From Escherichia coli (lineage in GTDB: Bacteria > Pseudomonadota > Gammaproteobacteria > Enterobacterales > Enterobacteriaceae), in the NCBI RefSeq assembly GCF_001677475.2, contig NZ_CP015229.1: a stretch of 64,000 bases of DNA, one strand, 5' to 3'. Shown here one piece after another: positions 6,621-58,949 of this stretch. Every line of letters begins with the position of its first letter. Positions within the stretch are counted from its first letter, which is position 1. The notes below the pieces were generated by a model. The model was not told the DNA's origin. It saw only the letters and a list, made by a program, of their open reading frames with translations, and searched no databases. The translations under genes were made by a program, and so were the position numbers.

Positions 6621-8065
6621 TATGGTCTTCCTATTAATTTACTGTGGGATACAGCATTGATGTCATCTACAACCATCTGGAATGTCGGTTGGCGTCCTTC
6701 AAAGCGTGCGCGTTCCGCAACGTAATCGTGGTGGAGGTCGAGAATATCTTTTGGCAATGGAACGGCTCCGGCTTCCAGTACGCGTATCGCGCCGGTGTTG
6801 TCACGGACCGGAAGAATTTTGCCCGCGTTGCAGGCGGCTGGCGCAAATGGCACATCCAGTACGCCCGCTTCAAATGCCAGCACCGTTCCGCGCGCAATAT
6901 CATCATTACCCAGTTCGAACACTTTATTCAGTACTGCGCGAACCTCGCTCTTAATCAGTTCAATTTCCAGTTCAACCGCAGGGCACGGCGGAAATTTCTG
7001 CTCATTGACCATGTTGAGCATCTGGCGGGAGGCTTTTAGCCCCTGAATGTTGGCAGCGGCAGTCGGGATGCCCCAGGCTTCGTGCGGACTTTTGGTGATG
7101 ACTTTGGTGGCACCAGACATCCCCGCGACGGCTGCGCCCCAGGAGATAATAGCGAACGCTTTCGATTCGTCTTCCGGAAAGCCGCCCATCCACTGGTGAA
7201 ACACGGTACTTAATTCATAGTCGGTATAGCCATAGCTCTGAAAGTAGTCATGTGCAAGTTCACGCAGAGACTGGATCGCCGCAACATCCTGCGTCAGGCT
7301 GCCGACCTGTCCATAACCAACGGTGATAGATTTCACACCCTGTTCCAGTGCCAGCAATCCTTCGATTATCGCGATAGAGTGCGAGATAAACGGCGGGATC
7401 AGCGTACCCGTTAGTGGGCCAAACGGTTCGCGGTTGATGCGGATCCCGTGTTCTTCATACATCCCCATTAAACGGTCGCAGTACTGCCAGTCGCGGATCG
7501 ATTTTTCCAGCGTTACGCGTTTGGCATACGGAATGTTGTAGGAAATGCCGCCGCCTTCATAACTGGTAAAGCCGCTGGACATCGAGATTTCAGCCAGCAG
7601 ACGTGCATCTGGCGTGCCGTGGCGGATCTGTAGCGGTTTTTGCAGGGTTTCGGTGAGGCGACGGCAAGCAGCGACACCATGGTTAACTACCGGTAAACCG
7701 TTCAGTTTAGAGGTTCCGGCTTCGATGGATTTTTTAATCCCTACAGCCGCTTCTTCGTACCGATTCAGACGGGTATATGCATCGATGGTGCTTGGCAGCA
7801 GATCGCACTCTTCTTGTAGTGTTTTCAGTAGTTCGATGTGTTCGTCCATCAGCGCCACACCTGCGCGTGGTTGGCTAAGGGTTTTTCCTTCCTTGTCTGC
7901 TTTCAGCAGCGCAAGAGAGAAGCGTTTATGCTCAGGAATGGTTTGTTGGTATTTAACGCCATCTTCAAAGTTTTCAACATCCTTGCCGGTTTCCCAGGTT
8001 TTCAGTACCTGTTGCCGCTCGGTCATGAATTCGTCATGGGTTAATTTCTTATTTCGAAGTTCCAT
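6620..8065 (-). CDS. Glutamate mutase epsilon (E, catalytic) subunit
   Basis: 481-aa ORF; MELRNKK..., PRAGVALMDEHIELL, HGTPDARLLAEI, FHQWMGGFPEDESKAF match GlmE/MutE; 1-bp overlap with downstream methylaspartase gene. Confidence 0.9.
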   Translation of the reverse strand: MELRNKKLTHDEFMTERQQVLKTWETGKDVENFEDGVKYQQTIPEHKRFSLALLKADKEGKTLSQPRAGVALMDEHIELLKTLQEECDLLPSTIDAYTRLNRYEEAAVGIKKSIEAGTSKLNGLPVVNHGVAACRRLTETLQKPLQIRHGTPDARLLAEISMSSGFTSYEGGGISYNIPYAKRVTLEKSIRDWQYCDRLMGMYEEHGIRINREPFGPLTGTLIPPFISHSIAIIEGLLALEQGVKSITVGYGQVGSLTQDVAAIQSLRELAHDYFQSYGYTDYELSTVFHQWMGGFPEDESKAFAIISWGAAVAGMSGATKVITKSPHEAWGIPTAAANIQGLKASRQMLNMVNEQKFPPCPAVELEIELIKSEVRAVLNKVFELGNDDIARGTVLAFEAGVLDVPFAPAACNAGKILPVRDNTGAIRVLEAGAVPLPKDILDLHHDYVAERARFEGRQPTFQMVVDDINAVSHSKLIGRP

Positions 8066-8083
8066 TGATTGCAGCCTTAATTG

Positions 8084-9472
8084 TTATAGGGTTAAGCATT
8101 GAATACTGGTGCGCGCGGCGGCCAGCGGATCGACTCTGGCGACGTTTGCCAGCAGTGGTAATAGCCCCCGGGAATCGCGGTAATATTCAAATTCGGTCGG
8201 TAAGAGAATGCGTTTACCGTCGTCGTTTAACTCGCGGTATTTCAACCAGTGATGCATATCGAACTGACTGGCACGCGAGAGCCATCCGCCGGAACCCACG
8301 ACTTTACGCACGGTTGTCAGGTCACGTCCCATCTGTAAATCGACATTGCCGACGCAGGTGCAGACCTCTTTTTTGGTGCCCGCATGTCTTTCGGTGGCAT
8401 AACCCACACACAGTCCGGCCAGGACGGTATCGAAATATTTCTCTTCTGCATTTGCGGGTAAGTAGTCGGGATGAGCGACTAAATGACGGAGATAATGATA
8501 AAAAGCGTCCAGCTGTGCGGGTTGCTGAGCAAAATTCACATTGACTAACTCTTTCGCACTTTCACCAACCACCACTGCCGAGACGCGCATTCCCAGATCG
8601 CCTTCCACCGTCCGTTTTACGAAGGGTTCCGGTACGCCGTGTAAAACGGTGTCGGGCGAGAGCGTGTTGGCACAGGCGGAATAGACATCGGTGGTTGCGC
8701 CGCCCATGTCGATCAGCATGAACTCTTTCCAGCTGTGATCGACGTTACTGATTGCCTTAACCAGTTCAAAGACCGTCCATGGTGTCGGCCTTGGTTCTTC
8801 GCCTGTTTTATCAACAATGACATCCAGCCCTTTCCCTTTAACGATGCGTTTAAGGAATATGTCGCAAATAGCCTGGCGTGCGGCTAAAGGGTTCGGATGG
8901 TCAAGATCGGGCAGAACGTTGTCGACGATGGTCAGGTCTTTATGCCCGAGGAGCTCCTGCACCTCGTCCTGAATATCCCGGTTTCCGGCATAAATAATGG
9001 CGCAGTCGAGTTGGGATTCTGCCAGCACACGGGCGTTATTCAGTCCGTAACTTTCTTCTCCGCCGTCGGTGCCGCCGGTGAACAAGAGAATATCGGGCTG
9101 CGTTTCTTCCAGTGCCTGGATATCACGGCGGTTCAGCTTGTAGGAGTAATATTGCGCAATTTTAGCCCCCGCAGAGTGAGCGGTTACTTTCGCGGTTTCC
9201 AGGGTGATAGAAGGCACCAATCCCATTGCGGCAACCGCCAGCCCACCTTTGGCAGAGGAGGAATACTTTAATGCAACCTCACCACTGTTTAACAGGGGGA
9301 GGGCATCATCTACGTTTAACACCTGGTCCAGGCTGGAGAAAAACCCCTTCGCCAGATGATGGGTGGTGGTTGGGGTCAGAACGTGGTTAACCAACGTTAA
9401 CGCGTCCCCCTCCCGGGTGAAGAGGGCTGCTTTGGTCCACGTCGAACCAATATCGACAGAGACGATTTGCAT
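8084..9472 (-). CDS. Glutamate mutase component L (MutL/GlmL-type putative reactivating chaperone)
   Basis: 462-aa ORF between the S and E subunit genes, the position GlmL occupies in clostridial operons; N-terminus [18 protein letters not shown] is actin/hsp70-fold like. Confidence 0.8.
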   Translation of the reverse strand: MQIVSVDIGSTWTKAALFTREGDALTLVNHVLTPTTTHHLAKGFFSSLDQVLNVDDALPLLNSGEVALKYSSSAKGGLAVAAMGLVPSITLETAKVTAHSAGAKIAQYYSYKLNRRDIQALEETQPDILLFTGGTDGGEESYGLNNARVLAESQLDCAIIYAGNRDIQDEVQELLGHKDLTIVDNVLPDLDHPNPLAARQAICDIFLKRIVKGKGLDVIVDKTGEEPRPTPWTVFELVKAISNVDHSWKEFMLIDMGGATTDVYSACANTLSPDTVLHGVPEPFVKRTVEGDLGMRVSAVVVGESAKELVNVNFAQQPAQLDAFYHYLRHLVAHPDYLPANAEEKYFDTVLAGLCVGYATERHAGTKKEVCTCVGNVDLQMGRDLTTVRKVVGSGGWLSRASQFDMHHWLKYRELNDDGKRILLPTEFEYYRDSRGLLPLLANVARVDPLAAARTSIQCLTL

Positions 9473-9921
9473 CAGATTGCCTCTTCAAGAATGCGAGTAT
9501 CAACGTCATGACGTTGGTTGATATCGTGGGCCATCAGCTGACAAACATCTTCTAAGTCATGACTTGGGGAAAAGACGCGATCAAATCCCATCTCTTTGAA
9601 CTTGGTTTCCACGTCAGCGAAGTCATGTTTTCCGACCACCAGGTTACCGCCCACATAGAGCAGGATGTTACCCAGCCCACGCTCGATGCAGCGTTCGCGC
9701 ATGCCCAGACAATCGATATCGCCATGCCCATAGATAGAAGAGACGACAATCGCGTCAGCGCCAGTTTCAATAGCAGCATCAATATATTCGTCCTGGCTGA
9801 CCATTACGCCCAGATTAATGACTCTGAAGTCGTGGTTGCTAAAAACGCGGTCCAGAACTTTATTGCCTACTGCATGGCAGTCCGCGCCAATAACGCCAAT
9901 CACAAGTGTTGCTTTCTTCAT
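9472..9921 (-). CDS. Glutamate mutase sigma (S, B12-binding) subunit
   Basis: [24 protein letters not shown] carries the DxHxxG cobalamin-binding motif; start moved to internal ATG (complement 9919-9921) with AAGGA SD; ORF-track start 9984 rejected. Confidence 0.9.
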
Positions 9922-10468
9922 GGGTAATCCTTTGTAAGACAGAGAGTAAAATAAGTTACACACGTCGTATTTATGGCCGCTCATAACGGCACAGGTTTAA
10001 TATCACAGGAGTGTCTTTATCTGACCGTAATGTTGCAATTGATCTATTTTCAAAATGTCTTTCGGGAAATGATTGTTTAAAGTGTGTTTTCAAATTCTCA
10101 TTTTAATTCAGTGTGTTATGTCAACTAATGTCATGAATGTTAAATTTTTAAAATTAACTTGATTTGATGTATTGAGATAATTGTGATCAACTTCTAATTT
10201 GCATTTTTGTGACGTGGCTTTAGCCATGAGTAAATGCATTTCATAAAAGTTAAGTCGAATTTCACTGCAATTCATCTCTGCTTAATGTAAAAATAATGTT
10301 GAAAATAACAAATAATTAATGATTCATGCGAATTATGACCTTTGTTAGCTCTTTTGATTTTTCGTAAAAAAGAAAAGCACATGAAGGTGCTACCAGTACG
10401 AGAAACGTTAATCAAAAGTTTTATTACGTCTGGCAATAACGCAGGCCATTTTTCGCGACAGGAGGGAT
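9922..10468 (-). promoter_or_regulatory. AT-rich leader/promoter region of the glutamate mutase operon
   Basis: About 550 bp non-coding, very AT-rich, directly upstream of the first operon gene; no specific sites identified. Confidence 0.4.
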
Positions 10469-10891
10469 TTAATCAGTATAATCCTCATACAATAGGTCAG
10501 GATTTACAGAACCGTTAACGGGGTTTTGGTGTTGAAATTTAGAAATGGTGGAGTCAATCAATGAAGACAGTATCGAAAAAATGACTGTGTCAGAACTAAT
10601 TTCAATTAATCCTTCTCGTTGTTGATCAAAAAAGATATTTATCTTGATTTCATTTGTACTACGGCAATCAATATGTAGTAATTTTTGATCGCTGAGATTT
10701 TCTGTTTCATAAATGTTTTTGGCGATAGTCGGATGTATTGATGCCAGACATCTGCTCAGATAAGCCATATCCTTTAAGGAACTCCCCGCTGAGTAGAGGA
10801 TGTCAGAGAATTTTTGTGTGTCAACTGTTGTCTCTGAAGCGTATGTTGCATTGACAGGAAGAGTATTGAAAGAGATCTGAGATGGTATCAT
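10469..10891 (-). CDS. Hypothetical acidic small protein (140 aa), second gene of AT-rich two-gene module
   Basis: Complete ORF in AT-rich DNA; Asp/Glu-rich, no motif I recognise. Confidence 0.55.
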   Translation of the reverse strand: MIPSQISFNTLPVNATYASETTVDTQKFSDILYSAGSSLKDMAYLSRCLASIHPTIAKNIYETENLSDQKLLHIDCRSTNEIKINIFFDQQREGLIEISSDTVIFSILSSLIDSTISKFQHQNPVNGSVNPDLLYEDYTD

Positions 10892-10972
10892 TATTTAAAT
10901 CTTTCCGTGAGTAATAAAAATTAATCCCCAGGCATTGTTTAGCAATATTTGCCATAGGGGATATATAGAAAA

Positions 10973-11917
10973 TTAAAGTATTTTATTGGCTTCGGTTAAC
11001 TGATCTATAACCAGTGCCAGATTGGTAAACATTTTGAAAAAGCGATACTGGCTCGGAATATCTCTTTCAAAGACGAAACATTCAAGGTCATTGTTTGAAA
11101 AATAAAGGACTAGTGTTGCTGATTCGTCAGGGAAAACATGGAAATGTATCTGGTTACCAGAAGGAGGATAGTCCAGAAGAAGGGTATCTTTGCCCGTCAC
11201 ATACCTGTTGTTGTCGTGGACGCTACGCTCACACTTCATCAGAGGTGTCAGGATACTCATGTATTCATCTGATGTTAATTTATTAAAATCATCATTCATT
11301 TTAAAGAAACGATAAAGTAACAGTACATCCTCTTGCGTAACCGGTTCGTTTGTTTTTAGAGGGAAATAAGCGGGAACCAGAAGATGAGGTTCTAATCTAT
11401 TTTGTTGAGCGCTATAACTGAATTTGAACATAAATTCTGGATCGCTCATCAATTGAGCGACATAATTATGCCTGGCTTCAAAAATTTTAATTTTTATCAG
11501 GTTGAATAAGTCTGTTTCGTCATCCTGTATTAAAAGACATTGGCCATAGCAGCCTGGATTTTTTTCATTATAAGCAGAAACGGTTATTCTGTCAGAGGTG
11601 TCAACGTTATATTCAAAAGCCAGATAGTGACCTTCTTCATCGCGATTTGTTTCCAGGTTATTTAAATTCATCACATGAAGTGTTTGCAATGCTGATTCAA
11701 TGAGTTGTTGACTCTCTGAGGTAAATGTTTTGCGCTGCGTTGTATAAAGTGTATCAATTCCAACGACTATCCGATGTGGATCAAGGATGGCGGCAATCAT
11801 CTTTATTACCTGCACAGTCACGGGTGATGTCATTGATTCTTCATCTGTTTTTAGAGGATCATTAGATGGCCAACCTGAGAAGCGATTGACAGCCGAACCG
11901 ATATTATCTGGACTCAT
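10973..11917 (-). CDS. Hypothetical protein (314 aa), first gene of AT-rich two-gene module
   Basis: Complete ORF, same strand and 81 bp upstream of the 140-aa ORF; no TM segments or known motifs recognised; spot-checked 60-bp lines are about one-third G+C. Confidence 0.55.
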   Translation of the reverse strand: MSPDNIGSAVNRFSGWPSNDPLKTDEESMTSPVTVQVIKMIAAILDPHRIVVGIDTLYTTQRKTFTSESQQLIESALQTLHVMNLNNLETNRDEEGHYLAFEYNVDTSDRITVSAYNEKNPGCYGQCLLIQDDETDLFNLIKIKIFEARHNYVAQLMSDPEFMFKFSYSAQQNRLEPHLLVPAYFPLKTNEPVTQEDVLLLYRFFKMNDDFNKLTSDEYMSILTPLMKCERSVHDNNRYVTGKDTLLLDYPPSGNQIHFHVFPDESATLVLYFSNNDLECFVFERDIPSQYRFFKMFTNLALVIDQLTEANKIL

Positions 11918-12722
11918 AGCAGCAACCTCATTGTAATCAAGCGAGGCGCTGAGCGTACTCGGCTATAGAAAAACTAACTTGCAAAAATCGCTCATTTTTC
12001 ATTTATCAGGCGAAAGTGGCCTCTGTTCACTCAGAAACAATCACTCCCGCTAAGTCATACCTGTTTCATCGATACATTTAAGTGATTATTACTAATGAAA
12101 CAATAACATAACGGGCTTACGGTCGGTGCTCATAAAGGCAACAATCAATTAACTTTGATAAAAATATGTTATGTAAAATAGCAACAAATTGGCTACTCTA
12201 ATCAATTGGTATTATAAAAAGAGGATAAGGCGGTTCTGTTAAATAAAACACTGGTTTTTTATCTATACCTTTTCATTGTAATAATTGTGTTGCATAAATA
12301 TTTCACAATAAATTAACAATAAAATCACCAATGATCTATGGTTTATACATAATTAACATATTTGGTTGGTTTTGATATAAATCAATTTTTAATTCTTGAA
12401 AAAAATCTGCAAAACACGATAAATTGTCGTAGATCAAATTGGTGAGATCGTGACAATTTCGCTATAAATTGATCACTGTCGAAAAATGCAAATTTGCTCA
12501 ATAAAAACCTGTTTATTGTAAGGATTTTGCGGCGTAATATAATTACGGGATCAATTTGGTTTATTCATTAACATATTTGTAACTTTTTTATCATTGTCTT
12601 TTCCTCTTTTGATGAAATGGCAACGATAGAGGCGAGCAAATAATTTTGTATTGGGGCATGCGTGTGACCCTTTCTAACGGGGTTCACTCTCGGAGTCTTC
12701 ATGCGATGAGCAAGGAGTCATG
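11918..12722 (+). promoter_or_regulatory. cydAB upstream regulatory region, AT-rich
   Basis: Long AT-rich non-coding region before cydA; in E. coli the cydAB promoters are controlled by ArcA, FNR and H-NS (established knowledge); individual sites not resolved by eye. Confidence 0.5.
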
Positions 12723-20307: not shown

Positions 20308-20853
<546 letters not shown>

Positions 20854-20862
20854 GAGAATTGC

Positions 20863-21654
20863 ATGAGCAGTAACTTCAGACATCAACTATTGAGTCTGTC
20901 GTTACTGGTTGGTATAGCGGCCCCCTGGGCCGCTTTTGCTCAGGCACCAATCAGTAGTGTCGGCTCAGGCTCGGTCGAAGACCGCGTCACTCAACTTGAG
21001 CGTATTTCAAATGCTCACAGCCAGCTTTTAACCCAACTCCAGCAACAACTCTCTGATAATCAATCCGATATTGATTCCCTGCGCGGTCAGATTCAGGAAA
21101 ATCAGTATCAACTGAATCAGGTCGTGGAGCGGCAAAAGCAGATCCTGTTGCAGATCGACAGCCTCAGCAGCGGTGGTGCAGCGGCGCAATCAACCAGTGG
21201 TGATCAAAGCGGTGCGGCGGCATCAACGACGCCGACAGCTGATGCTGGTACTGCGAATGCTGGCGCGCCGGTGAAAAGCGGCGATGCAAACACGGATTAC
21301 AATGCAGCAATTGCGCTGGTGCAGGATAAATCCCGCCAGGATGACGCAATGGTGGCATTTCAGAATTTCATCAAAAATTACCCTGATTCAACTTACCTGC
21401 CAAACGCCAATTATTGGCTGGGTCAGTTAAACTACAACAAGGGTAAAAAAGATGATGCGGCGTACTATTTTGCTTCGGTAGTAAAAAACTATCCGAAGTC
21501 ACCAAAGGCTGCAGATGCGATGTTTAAAGTCGGTGTCATCATGCAGGACAAAGGTGACACCGCAAAAGCGAAAGCCGTATACCAGCAGGTTATCAGTAAA
21601 TACCCTGGTACTGATGGCGCTAAACAGGCACAAAAACGTCTGAACGCGATGTAA
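20863..21654 (+). CDS. cpoB: Cell division coordinator CpoB (YbgF), TPR protein
   Basis: 263-aa ORF with signal peptide, coiled-coil region and C-terminal TPR repeats. Confidence 0.95.
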   Translation: MSSNFRHQLLSLSLLVGIAAPWAAFAQAPISSVGSGSVEDRVTQLERISNAHSQLLTQLQQQLSDNQSDIDSLRGQIQENQYQLNQVVERQKQILLQIDSLSSGGAAAQSTSGDQSGAAASTTPTADAGTANAGAPVKSGDANTDYNAAIALVQDKSRQDDAMVAFQNFIKNYPDSTYLPNANYWLGQLNYNKGKKDDAAYYFASVVKNYPKSPKAADAMFKVGVIMQDKGDTAKAKAVYQQVISKYPGTDGAKQAQKRLNAM

Positions 21655-21818: not shown

Positions 21819-21894
21819 GGGTCGTTAGCTCAGTTGGTAGAGCAGTTGACTTTTAATCAATTGGTCGCAGGTTCGAATCCTGCACGACCCACCA
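21819..21894 (+). tRNA. lysT: tRNA-Lys (anticodon UUU)
   Basis: 76-nt gggtcgttagctcagttggtagagcagttgacttttaatcaattggtcgcaggttcgaatcctgcacgacccacca, anticodon loop cTTTTaa, CCA encoded. Confidence 0.97.
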
Positions 21895-21922
21895 ATCGCT
21901 AAGGTGGAAGCGGTAGTAAAAC

Positions 21923-21994
21923 GTGAAGGATAACGTTGCGTCAGCAACGGCCCGAAGGGCGAGACGAAGTCGAGTCATCCTGCACGACCCACCA
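21923..21994 (+). repeat. Spacer repeat ending in a tRNA-Lys 3' fragment (tcctgcacgacccacca)
   Basis: gtgaaggataacgttgcg.cagcaacggcccg.agggcgag..gaag.cgagtcatcctgcacgacccacca recurs three times in the array. Confidence 0.7.
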
Positions 21995-22029
21995 CTAACA
22001 TAGTTAGTTGTAGTATCCAGCGTAGTATC

Positions 22030-22105
22030 GGGTGATTAGCTCAGCTGGGAGAGCACCTCCCTTACAAGGAGGGGGTCGGCGGTTCGATCCCGTCATCACC
22101 CACCA
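22030..22105 (+). tRNA. valT: tRNA-Val (anticodon UAC)
   Basis: 76-nt gggtgattagctcagctgggagagcacctcccttacaaggaggg...cacccacca. Confidence 0.97.
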
Positions 22106-22107
22106 CC

Positions 22108-22183
22108 GGGTCGTTAGCTCAGTTGGTAGAGCAGTTGACTTTTAATCAATTGGTCGCAGGTTCGAATCCTGCACGACCCACCA
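22108..22183 (+). tRNA. lysW: tRNA-Lys (UUU)
   Basis: Identical to the first tRNA-Lys copy. Confidence 0.97.
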
Positions 22184-22234
22184 CTAATTACGGTGGGTTC
22201 GGTGGAAGTAGTTTGTAGTATCCAGCGCAGTATC

Positions 22235-22310
22235 GGGTGATTAGCTCAGCTGGGAGAGCACCTCCCTTACAAGGAGGGGGTCGGCGGTTCGATCCCGTCA
22301 TCACCCACCA
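22235..22310 (+). tRNA. valZ: tRNA-Val (UAC)
   Basis: Identical to the first tRNA-Val copy. Confidence 0.97.
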
Positions 22311-22313
22311 CTC

Positions 22314-22389
22314 GGGTCGTTAGCTCAGTTGGTAGAGCAGTTGACTTTTAATCAATTGGTCGCAGGTTCGAATCCTGCACGACCCACCA
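22314..22389 (+). tRNA. lysY: tRNA-Lys (UUU)
   Basis: Identical tRNA-Lys copy. Confidence 0.97.
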
Positions 22390-22417
22390 ATTTTAACATC
22401 AAACTCAGATGTTAAGC

Positions 22418-22487
22418 GTGAAGGATAACGTTGCGCCAGCAACGGCCCGTAGGGCGAGCGAAGCGAGTCATCCTGCACGACACACCA
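22418..22487 (+). repeat. Spacer repeat with degenerate tRNA-Lys 3' fragment (tcctgcacgacacacca)
   Basis: Second copy of the spacer element, with one substitution in the acceptor-stem fragment. Confidence 0.7.
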
Positions 22488-22535
22488 ATTTTAAAGATTG
22501 GTTCCGAGTAGAAATCTTTCAGGTAACACCCGTAT

Positions 22536-22611
22536 GGGTCGTTAGCTCAGTTGGTAGAGCAGTTGACTTTTAATCAATTGGTCGCAGGTTCGAATCCTGC
22601 ACGACCCACCA
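22536..22611 (+). tRNA. lysZ: tRNA-Lys (UUU)
   Basis: Identical tRNA-Lys copy. Confidence 0.97.
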
Positions 22612-22644
22612 TCCTGAATGATTAAAGCAGCATAATCCCGCAAG

Positions 22645-22720
22645 GGGTCGTTAGCTCAGTTGGTAGAGCAGTTGACTTTTAATCAATTGGTCGCAGGTTC
22701 GAATCCTGCACGACCCACCA
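22645..22720 (+). tRNA. lysQ: tRNA-Lys (UUU)
   Basis: Identical tRNA-Lys copy, last gene of the array. Confidence 0.97.
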
Positions 22721-22724
22721 ATGT

Positions 22725-22751
22725 AAAAAAGCGCCCTAAAGGCGCTTTTTT
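22725..22751 (+). terminator. Rho-independent terminator of the tRNA operon
   Basis: aaaaaagcgccctaaaggcgctttttt: GC stem flanked by A- and T-runs. Confidence 0.85.
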
Positions 22752-22775
22752 GCTATCTGAGATATTCAAAGATTC

Positions 22776-22876
22776 GAACCTGCAGCAGGTTCGAGTTGAG
22801 CGCAGCGAAACAACGGAGCCGCTCGCGGCGACGGCCCGAAGGGCGAGCGAAGCGAGTCATCCTGCACGACCCACCA
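22776..22876 (+). repeat. Third spacer repeat with tRNA 3' fragment, downstream of the terminator
   Basis: gattcgaacctgcagcaggttcgag...cggcccgaagggcgagcgaagcgagtcatcctgcacgacccacca; T-arm-like and acceptor-like fragments without a full tRNA. Confidence 0.65.
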
Positions 22877-22880
22877 ATGC

Positions 22881-22907
22881 AAAAAAGCGCCCTAAAGGCG
22901 CTTTTTT
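22881..22907 (+). terminator. Duplicate copy of the tRNA-operon terminator hairpin
   Basis: Exact repeat of aaaaaagcgccctaaaggcgctttttt. Confidence 0.8.
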
Positions 22908-23063
22908 GCTATTCAGGCATCTCTCAATTTCAATTCTTGACCCTGATGACATACTCCGCGCTTGCTGCGTAAACAACTCTACGTCGGAGGAATAAGACGC
23001 AAAGTGTGGCATTCGGCATCTCATACGTAATTCGAGTGACTTTTCCCCACCATTCGACTATCT

Positions 23064-57824: not shown

Positions 57825-57959
57825 GGCTTAACCACTAAACACTCTAGCCTCTGCACCTGGGTCAACTGATACGGTGCTTTGGCCGTGACAATGCTCGTAA
57901 AGATTGCCACCAGGGCGAAGGAAGAAATGACTTCGCCTCCCGTATCTGGAAAGGTGTAC
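57825..57959 (+). promoter_or_regulatory. Molybdenum-cofactor (Moco) riboswitch-like leader of the moa operon
   Basis: Long structured leader (...gcctctgcacctgggtcaactgatacggtgctttggccgtgacaatgctcgtaaagattgccaccagggcgaaggaag...) directly before moaA; boundaries approximate. Confidence 0.55.
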
Positions 57960-58949
57960 ATGGCTTCACAACTGACTGATGCATTTGCGCGTAAGTTTTA
58001 CTACTTGCGCCTGTCGATTACCGATGTGTGTAACTTTCGTTGCACCTACTGCCTGCCGGATGGCTACAAACCGAGCGGCGTCACTAATAAAGGCTTTCTT
58101 ACCGTCGATGAAATTCGCCGGGTTACGTGCGCCTTCGCCAGCCTGGGCACCGAAAAAGTGCGCCTGACAGGCGGTGAGCCGTCTTTACGCCGCGACTTTA
58201 CCGATATCATCGCCGCTGTGCGAGAAAACGACGCTATCCGCCAGATTGCGGTCACCACCAATGGTTACCGTCTGGAACGCGATGTGGCGAACTGGCGCGA
58301 TGCTGGACTTACTGGCATCAACGTCAGCGTTGATAGTCTGGACGCCCGCCAGTTTCACGCTATTACCGGGCAGGACAAATTCAACCAGGTCATGGCAGGG
58401 ATTGATGCTGCATTTGAGGCCGGTTTTGAGAAGGTCAAAGTCAATACCGTGCTGATGCGTGATGTTAATCATCACCAGCTCGAGACCTTTCTGAACTGGA
58501 TCCAGCATCGCCCTATCCAGCTGCGTTTCATCGAACTGATGGAAACGGGCGAGGGCAGCGAGCTCTTCCGTAAGCATCACATCTCTGGTCAGGTTCTGCG
58601 TGACGAGCTACTGCGTCGCGGCTGGATCCACCAATTACGTCAACGCAGCGACGGGCCCGCGCAAGTCTTTTGTCATCCGGATTACGCCGGAGAGATTGGC
58701 CTTATCATGCCGTATGAAAAAGACTTCTGCGCCACTTGCAACCGCCTGCGCGTTTCCTCCATTGGTAAACTCCATCTCTGCCTGTTTGGTGAAGGCGGCG
58801 TTAACCTGCGCGATCTGCTGGAAGACGATACCCAGCAACAGGCGCTGGAAGCGCGTATTTCAGCGGCGCTGCGGGAGAAGAAACAGACCCATTTCCTGCA
58901 TCAAAACAACACCGGTATTACGCAAAACTTATCGTACATTGGCGGCTAA
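57960..58949 (+). CDS. moaA: GTP 3',8-cyclase (Moco biosynthesis, radical SAM)
   Basis: [31 protein letters not shown] radical-SAM cluster motif; internal start (329 aa). Confidence 0.97.

Follow-up and report, generated by a model that had tools for sequence, protein, structure and literature searches.

The lysT operon of Escherichia coli raises the question of why the spacers between its tRNA genes carry repeated copies of a tRNA end. The window studied here, i.e., the whole stretch of DNA that was analysed (64,000 nucleotides of contig NZ_CP015229.1), includes one such operon, for which an original prediction had described seven intact tRNA genes in the order Lys, Val, Lys, Val, Lys, Lys, Lys. 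ARAGORN finds exactly these seven:

21819..21894, plus strand: tRNA-Lys(UUU), lysT position (ARAGORN; Rfam tRNA 79.2 bits)
22030..22105, plus strand: tRNA-Val(UAC) (ARAGORN)
22108..22183, plus strand: tRNA-Lys(UUU) (ARAGORN)
22235..22310, plus strand: tRNA-Val(UAC) (ARAGORN)
22314..22389, plus strand: tRNA-Lys(UUU) (ARAGORN)
22536..22611, plus strand: tRNA-Lys(UUU) (ARAGORN)
22645..22720, plus strand: tRNA-Lys(UUU), final operon gene, lysQ (ARAGORN)

The 18-mer ATCCTGCACGACCCACCA terminates all five tRNA-Lys genes of the window and occurs three more times in the spacers, with ends at 21994, 22487 (17/18, C to A at 22482) and 22876. Repeat comparison thus recovered all three of the spacer elements that had been predicted to end in the tRNA-Lys 3' end, including the substituted one. 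They also have in common 48-54 nt of non-tRNA sequence with 92-94% identity, so that they are related far beyond chance outside their tails as well, a relation that the prediction had left to be checked. The predicted size of 70-100 bp holds for the two in-operon copies (100 and 98 nt, from tRNA CCA to pseudo-CCA) and falls short for the post-terminator copy, which measures about 125 nt. The three elements are:

21895..21994, plus strand: TLR-1 (RtT, short form) at site 1 (RF00391 60.6 bits; structure and covariation)
22390..22487, plus strand: TLR-2 (RtT, short form) at site 3 (RF00391 51.6 bits; fold z -3.6)
22751..22876, plus strand: TLR-3 (RtT, long form) at site 5, 3' of terminator 1 (RF00391 51.5 bits at 22745-22876)

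These elements belong to a known and named family and are nothing new in kind. [quoted passage not shown] All three window elements exceed the gathering score of 45 bits of the Rfam covariance model RF00391, the full length of the model being reached by the TLR-1 and TLR-2 hits only because the T arm of the genuine tRNA preceding them supplies model positions 1-55. Their placement is that of the family, directly after a tRNA gene in an operon: TLR-1 and TLR-2 begin one base past the CCA of a tRNA-Lys, and TLR-3 follows lysQ and its terminator. So are the 18-nt tail and the conserved hairpin core, for which compensatory changes are found across the family, TLR-3 being without the closing stem. 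Compared with other TLR/RtT elements there is no difference of kind; K-12 has five RF00391 matches in the same operon, and the window fills three of these five sites, one tail carrying a C to A change. With high confidence, therefore, we read the window elements as TLR/RtT members in an ordinary variant of a strain-variable lysT locus, shaped by the loss and duplication of repeats.

A TLR consists of a compact hairpin core and, 3' of it, a tail that repeats the final 18 nt of the preceding tRNA. The core contains helix B (CGTTGC/GCAACG) and helix C (GCCC/GGGC), both partly imposed by the pattern that collected the relatives, and helix D, which is variable in sequence yet always paired. In the short form, to which TLR-1 and TLR-2 belong, the tail's first 10 nt pair with a 5' strand, which varies with the type of tRNA, to form a closing stem, P1. 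In TLR-1, this strand (21922-21931) pairs with 21977-21986, enclosing hairpins B, C and D, and the tail (21977-21994) is identical to the tRNA-Lys end at 18 of 18 positions. TLR-2 has a 5' hairpin; in its P1, 22417-22426 pairs with 22470-22479, and the tail (22470-22487) matches at 17 of 18 positions, its variant base being found also in E. coli W and two further strains. TLR-3 is built from a 12-bp hairpin (~22771-22797, made of inverted and direct T-arm halves), the core and a tail at 22859-22876 with 18 of 18 identities; it has no 5' strand of P1 and does not fold better than shuffled sequences (z -1.2).

The structure is supported by covariation. In an alignment of 52 different Lys and Arg TLRs of the short form, paired cells made up 94.9%, versus 28-50% when the partners were slid, and 52 double changes were counted versus 19 in shuffles. 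Pair 10/76 of P1 is U-A in Lys TLRs and G-C in Arg TLRs, pair 54/62 of hairpin D appears as GC, CG, AU or UA, and RNAalifold independently finds the same four helices in this short-form alignment (A1). For the long forms, pair 56/73 of hairpin A also varies (GC:27, UA:21, CG:15); hairpin D and P1 were too poorly aligned in the MAFFT alignment A2 for RNAalifold to call, and their support comes for this reason from A1. Such data bear on the simplest alternative, namely that unequal crossing-over left behind incomplete tRNA-Lys copies which are now decaying, the elements being inert debris with no identity of their own. The tRNA-derived tails, the clear unequal exchange at the locus, the dispensability of the copies (1133 of 5426 E. 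coli genomes, ~20%, have no match to the element) and single substitutions in 10 of 49 tails are all in line with decay. Beyond the 18-nt tail, however, lies a hairpin core which is not tRNA-like, carries compensatory changes and recurs beside five other host genes. Nor do the elements resemble tRNA pseudogenes: only the tail, plus GCAGGTTCGA in TLR-3, is tRNA-like, and neither ARAGORN nor the Rfam tRNA model made a call on the spacer elements. Covariation and homology across loci refute debris as a sufficient account, and we consider this reading very unlikely.

The same covariation speaks to the possibility that small basic peptides of the Tpr type are encoded in the elements. In K-12, the tpr frame (…RRQRPEGR…) does pass through the core, and kindred frames (RQQRPEGR, RRRPEGRAKR) can be read in each of the three window copies, but these begin at TTG and vary in length and termini, and the covariation of the stems preserves the pairing and not the protein sequence. 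Because the starts are not conserved and the stems covary, the small-ORF reading was rejected as extremely improbable.

The core is much more widespread than the operon. With the same covariation, it is found across genera attached to the ends of five types of tRNA (Lys, Tyr, Arg, Pro and Ser) and to that of 5S rRNA; it is common to tRNA and rrn operons across Enterobacterales and beyond, being kept from Escherichia to Gilliamella, Photobacterium and Amphritea (about ten chance matches of the core pattern in unrelated GC-rich genomes, including Shinella, Archangiaceae and a Clostridia MAG, were removed). The tail is identical to the 18 nt of the upstream tRNA in 95 of 115 elements linked to the five tRNA types, and nine more elements end in the 5S rRNA end, including one in the rrnB T1-T2 spacer. 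Three TLRs with a spacing of 156 nt are present in Klebsiella sp. L034 and in Pantoea sp. L058.

This distribution invites the idea that TLRs are, or were, a small non-autonomous mobile element that settles in the 3' portion of genes for stable RNAs. Its point of entry would be the T loop in tRNAs and the position ahead of the last 13 nt in 5S rRNA, the 3' end of the host gene being carried along or duplicated. One core found beside the ends of six kinds of host gene, long forms which read ..GGTTCGA | core | ATCC.., as if inserted into a T loop, and direct repeats which bound presence and absence in the manner of a target duplication all fit. On the other hand, only the same five sites are ever filled in 19 E. 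coli loci, flank-matched TLRs in other genera (for three sites, and more weakly for a fourth) point to loss and not insertion, and no transposase or recombinase is associated. The 13-nt T-loop sequence AGGTTCGAATCCT, common to Lys, Tyr, Arg and Pro tRNAs, could instead have permitted spread by rare gene conversion. As an account of origin, mobility is compatible with membership in the TLR/RtT family, and we regard it as doubtful. A broader version deserves the same reserve: TLRs would be a widespread lineage which repeatedly colonised stable-RNA 3' ends in Gammaproteobacteria (at least those of tRNA-Lys, Tyr, Arg, Pro, Ser and 5S rRNA), gained the last 18 nt of each host, adapted its closing stem, and at lysT would exert regulatory or fitness effects through a dosage of 0-6. 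Unlikely as this seems, the TLR would then in effect ride as a passenger on the machinery that processes the 3' ends of stable RNAs.

When an integrase inserts its element at a tRNA gene, it commonly leaves a second copy of the gene's 3' part, starting from the T loop. The original prediction had suggested that the fragments could serve as integration targets, and the repeated ends may be read as attL/attR-type scars of integrative elements at tRNA-Lys. The likeness to tRNA-gene att sites is that of direct repeats of a tRNA 3' part, and the window repeat does run from the T loop to CCA. The window differs in having neither integrase nor island: just 98-156 nt separate the repeats, the ORFs in them are only mechanical, and the interval is filled by the fixed, structured TLR core, in an arrangement found also at 5S rRNA genes. 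Since no cargo is present, we rejected this reading, to which we assign next to no probability.

Comparison between strains shows how the TLR/RtT elements come and go. The window has three TLRs versus five in the K-12 operon, and the two absent copies are missing exactly between 18-nt direct repeats. The corresponding spacers are:

22184..22234, plus strand: empty TLR site 2, 51-nt spacer (149 nt including a TLR in K-12; spacer comparison with K-12)
22612..22644, plus strand: empty TLR site 4, 33-nt spacer (132 nt including a TLR in K-12; spacer comparison with K-12)

At site 2, the difference between window and K-12 is exactly one TLR, with the 18-nt repeat as bounds. In 19 E. coli loci, any of the five sites can be filled or empty, with spacer lengths of 135/35, 149/51, 146/48 and 132/33 and boundaries exactly at the repeat; the tRNA-Lys count ranges from 4 to 6 and the unit made of TLR and terminator is present in 0, 1 or 2 copies. 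TLR copy number at lysT varies from 0 to 6 in natural strains, and 59 sampled genomes displayed 24 distinct locus lengths. Queries of 70 nt across the junctions, run over 5426 genomes, were dropped, because the search joins separate pieces up to ~535 nt apart and the ">=80% covered" counts therefore mix filled and empty alleles (4478 + 2311 > 5426). TLRs with flanks like those of sites 1, 3 and 5 exist in Citrobacter, Phytobacter and other genera, and the empty states of these three sites in E. coli are therefore losses. For site 4, a TLR of Citrobacter youngae L068 has a similar downstream flank, the match being weak (score 14).

The end of the operon has been shaped by a larger duplication:

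22723..22753, plus strand: intrinsic terminator 1, GCGCC/GGCGC stem lengthened by A6/T6 (fold -19.1 kcal/mol, z -5.75)
22879..22909, plus strand: intrinsic terminator 2, copy of terminator 1 (fold -21.1 kcal/mol, z -6.45)
22703..22912, plus strand: 156-nt tandem unit of tRNA end, terminator and TLR body, x1.35 (self-comparison repeat)

The predicted duplication of the terminator together with a tRNA-end fragment was borne out: positions 22703-22756 return at 22859-22912 (54 nt, 98%, spacing 156), terminator 2 differing from terminator 1 by one T-to-C change through which one G-C pair is gained. Terminator 1 is described as the Rho-independent terminator of the lysT operon and as identical to that of valU (PMC4176162). 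The two plus-strand terminators escaped a consensus scan, whose rule needs a T tail that is here taken up by the A6/T6 extension of the stem, and they were assessed by folding instead; a promoter scan found none.

The locus had been taken for a footprint of past recombination, and strain comparison sustains this with the precise loss of TLRs, 0-2 copies of the unit and 4-6 tRNA-Lys genes. The accompanying notion of mere partial tRNA duplication does not hold, since only the last 18 nt, plus the T-arm half in TLR-3, are tRNA-derived. Single TLRs would be lost through recombination or slippage between 18-nt repeats, and whole units would be lost or doubled through unequal exchange, with the identical 76-nt tRNA-Lys genes as partners, a mechanism that we infer from the end states. 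The locus could be used to gauge short-repeat recombination within an essential operon.

What becomes of the elements as RNA may be proposed from their position. TLR-1 and TLR-2 would be transcribed as part of the polycistronic tRNA precursor and excised by the tRNA maturation enzymes, RNase P cutting at the 5' end of the next tRNA, and RNase E and 3' exonucleases, halting at the CCA-ending tail, forming their 3' ends. Stem P1 probably keeps this pseudo-3' end from mispairing with the halves of real tRNAs. In this operon, RNase P takes off the terminator first and then proceeds from 3' to 5', and K-12 northerns with probes to the lysT spacers showed few intermediates in wild-type cells and did not report any discrete RNA from the spacers (PMC4176162).

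The founding member of the family is the rtT RNA (rttR) of the tyrT-tyrV operon, which has the same core and logic as the window TLRs. Each of its 178-bp repeats ends in the tRNA-Tyr 3' end ATCCTTCCCCCACCACCA, and the annotated RNA of 171 nt begins 7 nt past tyrV and stops exactly at the pseudo-CCA. Its tail and P1 strand are specific for Tyr (GGGGAAGGAT/ATCCTTCCCC), and the tyrT copies are long forms with the T-arm half, whereas TLR-1 and TLR-2 are short ones. Release of an RNA was demonstrated at tyrT, whereas the lysT TLRs are known from sequence. Small RNAs are described from these relatives, namely rtT RNA from tyrT and RrA/RrB/RrF from rrn operons, where they lie between T1 and T2 of rrnA, rrnB and rrnD, release of a discrete RNA being published for tyrT rtT and rrnB RrB only (PMC8144298). 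RrB and TLR-3 share a layout: the end of a gene is followed by a terminator, a TLR whose tail repeats that gene end, and another terminator, the window counterparts being lysQ, terminator, TLR-3 and terminator. TLR-3 nevertheless falls outside the RrA/RrB/RrF group, its host end being tRNA-Lys and not 5S rRNA; moreover, the two lysT terminators duplicate each other, unlike the rrn T1 and T2, whose sequences differ, and only the rrn copies are reported to have the CsrA-binding GGA motifs (PMC8144298). Other RNAs of tRNA spacers such as 3'ETS-leuZ (cited in PMC8144298) are likewise by-products of tRNA precursors that could persist; 3'ETS-leuZ has no sequence relation to TLRs and pairs with RyhB and RybB.

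The earlier idea that the spacers could yield small RNAs agrees, by analogy, with the published relatives. A stronger form holds that the lysT TLRs are regulatory small RNAs or sponges arising from tRNA maturation, comparable to 3'ETS-leuZ or RrA/RrB/RrF, with a copy number that tunes a regulon. An RNA structure under selection, rrn relatives that mature into stable forms and, in vitro, bind Hfq and CsrA (PMC8144298), and the position of TLR-3 between two terminators, as for RrB, argue in its favour. However, all 19 tRNA-operon TLRs score <0.01 for CsrA binding and the sole functional claim for rtT was withdrawn (PMC8144298), the northerns mentioned above reported no stable spacer species, and natural strains live with anything from 0 to 6 copies. 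A regulatory role thus seems possible, though improbable. The tRNA-operon TLRs have no known function (PMC8144298), and a search for rtT function in the literature returned passing mentions only. That all five copies are missing from roughly one in five E. coli argues against an important role, and we do not expect an essential function. After 45 years the family is still a loose end: its members are structured and conserved and share transcripts with essential tRNAs and rRNAs, but they are freely lost in nature. The natural lysT series of 0-6 copies would offer a handy system for testing whether they have any effect.

For annotation, such spacers are better labelled as TLR/RtT elements than treated as anomalies. 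Rfam-based pipelines under-call them, in-operon copies overlapping tRNA matches and Arg-linked and 5S-linked TLRs scoring below the Rfam threshold. The orthologue of TLR-3 in strain NY1601 already carries the PGAP (NCBI) annotation 'RtT sRNA'.

The tRNA operon of the window, flanked by cpoB and nadA, holds seven tRNA genes in 21819-22720, in the order Lys(UUU), Val(UAC), Lys, Val, Lys, Lys and Lys. Every tRNA-Lys gene in it ends with the 18-mer ATCCTGCACGACCCACCA, which was found three more times, ending at 21994, 22487 (with a C to A change at 22482) and 22876. These extra copies are the 3' ends of three elements, TLR-1, TLR-2 and TLR-3, which resemble each other over a further 48-54 nt outside the tRNA sequence (92-94% identity). 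A 54-nt block made of tRNA end and terminator (22703-22756) recurs at 22859-22912, 156 nt apart and 98% identical, and both terminator hairpins are predicted to fold, at -19 and -21 kcal/mol (z about -6). Because the tRNA set, the extra 18-mers and the duplicated block are all present, the original prediction of Lys/Val genes interspersed with three related tRNA-Lys 3' ends, one of them substituted, and followed by a doubled terminator plus fragment, was confirmed in every point. Five of the six tRNA-Lys genes of K-12 lie in the lysT operon, which makes it essential there (PMC11480407). Two other RNA features of the window are:

20754-20892, + strand: CpoB/ybgF thermometer RNA (RF02782), 142 bits, just upstream of cpoB
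57828-57972, + strand: molybdenum cofactor riboswitch (RF01055), 103 bits

The three elements score 60.6, 51.6 and 51.5 bits on the Rfam family RtT (RF00391), all above its curated threshold of 45, and K-12 has five such matches within the same operon. The family to which the window feature belongs has been known since 1978 and has its Rfam entry; the window contributes only one further architectural variant. The literature calls these elements tRNA-linked repeats (TLRs) and counts 22 of them in K-12, spread over ten loci with one to five at each, with credit to Egan and Landy (1978) and Rudd (1999) (PMC8144298). The founding TLRs, the tyrT copies, have the same anatomy as the window elements, and the annotated 171-nt rttR RNA there runs from 7 nt past tyrV precisely to the first repeat's pseudo-CCA. 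In many E. coli genomes the NCBI pipeline labels the TLR-3 orthologue "RtT sRNA"; the in-operon Lys copies overlap tRNA matches and PGAP retains only the post-terminator copy. Members linked to tRNA-Arg(ACG) and 5S rRNA, namely L027 99-221 and the two listed here, reach only 31.5 and 30.3 bits on RF00391, short of the 45-bit gathering score, and are therefore missed by Rfam-based annotation:

L070 2730-2857: TLR family member, E. coli serV-argV operon
L140 330-425: TLR family member, K-12 rrnB T1-T2

The short forms, TLR-1 and TLR-2, consist of a closing stem P1, three hairpins and an unpaired 3' tail, ACCCACCA. P1 pairs CGUGAAGGAU with AUCCUGCACG and includes one conserved A·G, hairpin B is CGUUGC/GCAACG, hairpin C is GCCC/GGGC and hairpin D is variable in sequence. 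Across 52 distinct short forms from many genera, linked to tRNA-Lys or tRNA-Arg(ACG), 94.9% of the cells were paired versus 28-50% with the partners slid, the search pattern having partly fixed helices B and C, and the observed covariation score was reached by none of 500 shuffles, a test inflated by the relatedness of the sequences. The P1 pair 10/76 is U-A in Lys copies and G-C in Arg copies, the hairpin D pair 54/62 occurs as four pair types, and RNAalifold recovered the same four helices unaided. The long forms, which are the Tyr and Pro copies, some Lys copies and TLR-3, have in addition a segment derived from the T arm and a hairpin A; in this hairpin, pair 56/73 is GC in 27, UA in 21 and CG in 15. 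TLR RNA is under structural constraint, and the view that the elements are pure debris is excluded by a core that covaries and is conserved across loci. The long forms read ...GGTTCGA, core, ATCC..., which looks as though a 3' tRNA half carried the core in its T loop. TLR-3 has lost its P1 strand and is predicted to form instead a 12-bp hairpin between an inverted and a direct T-arm half. In the minimum-energy fold of TLR-1, the spacer GGUGG (21903-21907) pairs with the tail CCACC (21989-21993) and closes the whole element; the AAGGTGG motif recurs in the site-4 copy of K-12 and in several copies from Citrobacter and Phytobacter, and is absent from copies of the site-2 or site-3 type.

A scan with the exact core pattern, using one genome per species, returned 120 loci in hosts including Enterobacterales, Orbaceae, Photobacterium, Marinobacterium and Amphritea. 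Among tRNA genes, the core is attached to the ends of Lys (44), Tyr (38), Arg-ACG (30), Pro (5) and Ser-UGA (3); a further 9 cases have it at the 3' end of 5S rRNA. TLR tails track the host gene: in 95 of the 115 elements with a tRNA upstream, the tail is identical to the last 18 nt of that tRNA. Of 49 E. coli tails, 10 have a single substitution each, and the C-to-A variant of the window is also found in E. coli W. The 5S-linked TLR is the K-12 rrnB T1-T2 spacer, the same as the RrB small RNA (PMC8144298). The layout of rrnB (gene end, terminator, TLR, second terminator) is that of the window, where lysQ, the last tRNA-Lys gene (22645-22720), is followed by terminator, TLR-3 and terminator. 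The rrnB T1-T2 spacer also serves as the terminator cassette of many cloning vectors. RtT elements from Marinobacterium (L032) and Amphritea (L092; 66.6 bits) have tRNA-Arg(CCG) upstream, and 6 of the 18 tail positions differ from the end of that tRNA; in these distant members, either the tail rule is relaxed or a change of host gene has taken place. In Pectobacterium (L061, L062, L136, L137), hairpins B and C occur within a 74-nt tandem repeat (…CATAAAAAAACGTCGGGAACGTTTTTCAACGTTGCGCAGCAACGGCCCGAAGGGTGACGGACAAGGATGTCCGT…) with neither tRNA nor 5S tail.

The in-operon spacers measure 135, 149, 146 and 132 nt in K-12 versus 135, 51, 146 and 33 nt in the window, and in both places where they differ, the difference amounts to exactly one TLR, its boundaries falling at the 18-nt repeat. 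Among 19 E. coli loci picked for differing lengths, the four in-operon sites each occur either with or without a TLR (filled/empty spacer lengths 135/35, 149/51, 146/48 and 132/33 nt), the terminator-plus-TLR unit is present in 0, 1 or 2 copies, and three loci have no TLR. Leaving aside L014 (strain P276M), these loci have 4-6 tRNA-Lys and 1-2 tRNA-Val genes. Both tRNA copy number and spacer content, whose comparison across strains had been proposed, vary. The presence or absence of TLRs is bounded by repeats, and a reading of the repeated tRNA ends as integration scars is excluded by the absence of cargo. In L014 (655-1300; architecture R-V-V-K-R-K-R-K-t) the first tRNA-Lys genes are uncalled, which could reflect an assembly error or real decay. 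We counted 24 locus lengths among 59 genomes, the window's length being seen once; these frequencies are rough since the genomes were drawn at even steps down the score ranking and not at random. Outgroup TLRs in Citrobacter, Phytobacter and others match the flanks of E. coli sites 1, 3 and 5, and the empty states there are therefore losses; site 4 has a weaker match and its empty state is probably also a loss, while no outgroup match was found for the flanks of site 2.

Single TLRs would be lost when the 18-nt direct repeats recombine or slip, and unequal exchange between identical tRNA-Lys genes or tandem units may remove or double whole tRNA-spacer or terminator-TLR units. In this operon, RNase P takes off the terminator and then parts the tRNAs from 3' to 5', with the help of RNase E (PMC4176162), and the repeated 3' end has been proposed as a determinant of RNase E processing (PMC8144298). 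TLR-1 and TLR-2 would be co-transcribed with the tRNAs and cut out by the same machinery, and TLR-3 would be produced only when transcription reads through terminator 1. We suggest that P1 shields the pseudo-3' end, which could otherwise pair with the 5' halves of genuine tRNAs; this may be why the 5' strand of P1 changes with tRNA type.

The sole functional claim for rtT, concerning the stringent response, has been withdrawn, and "TLRs have no known function" (PMC8144298). An important function is argued against by the loss of copies in a fifth of strains (an element match is absent from 1133 of the 5426 E. coli genomes searched), by K-12 northern blots with spacer probes, which report no discrete spacer RNA (PMC4176162), and by the CsrA-binder score of tRNA-operon TLRs, below 0.01 (PMC8144298). 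That the elements encode Tpr-like peptides is unlikely. A regulatory small-RNA role and a core that is mobile in origin or spread by conversion are compatible with each other and could each apply, with low probability; the window supports neither. The highest identity of the tRNA operon's flanks to any complete genome is 99.4%, and to K-12 it is 96.9%. Of 5426 complete E. coli genomes, only 1135 have the methylaspartate mutase cluster (glmS, mutase subunit E, glmL) that lies elsewhere in the window, at 8000-12000; the best identity is 98.1%.
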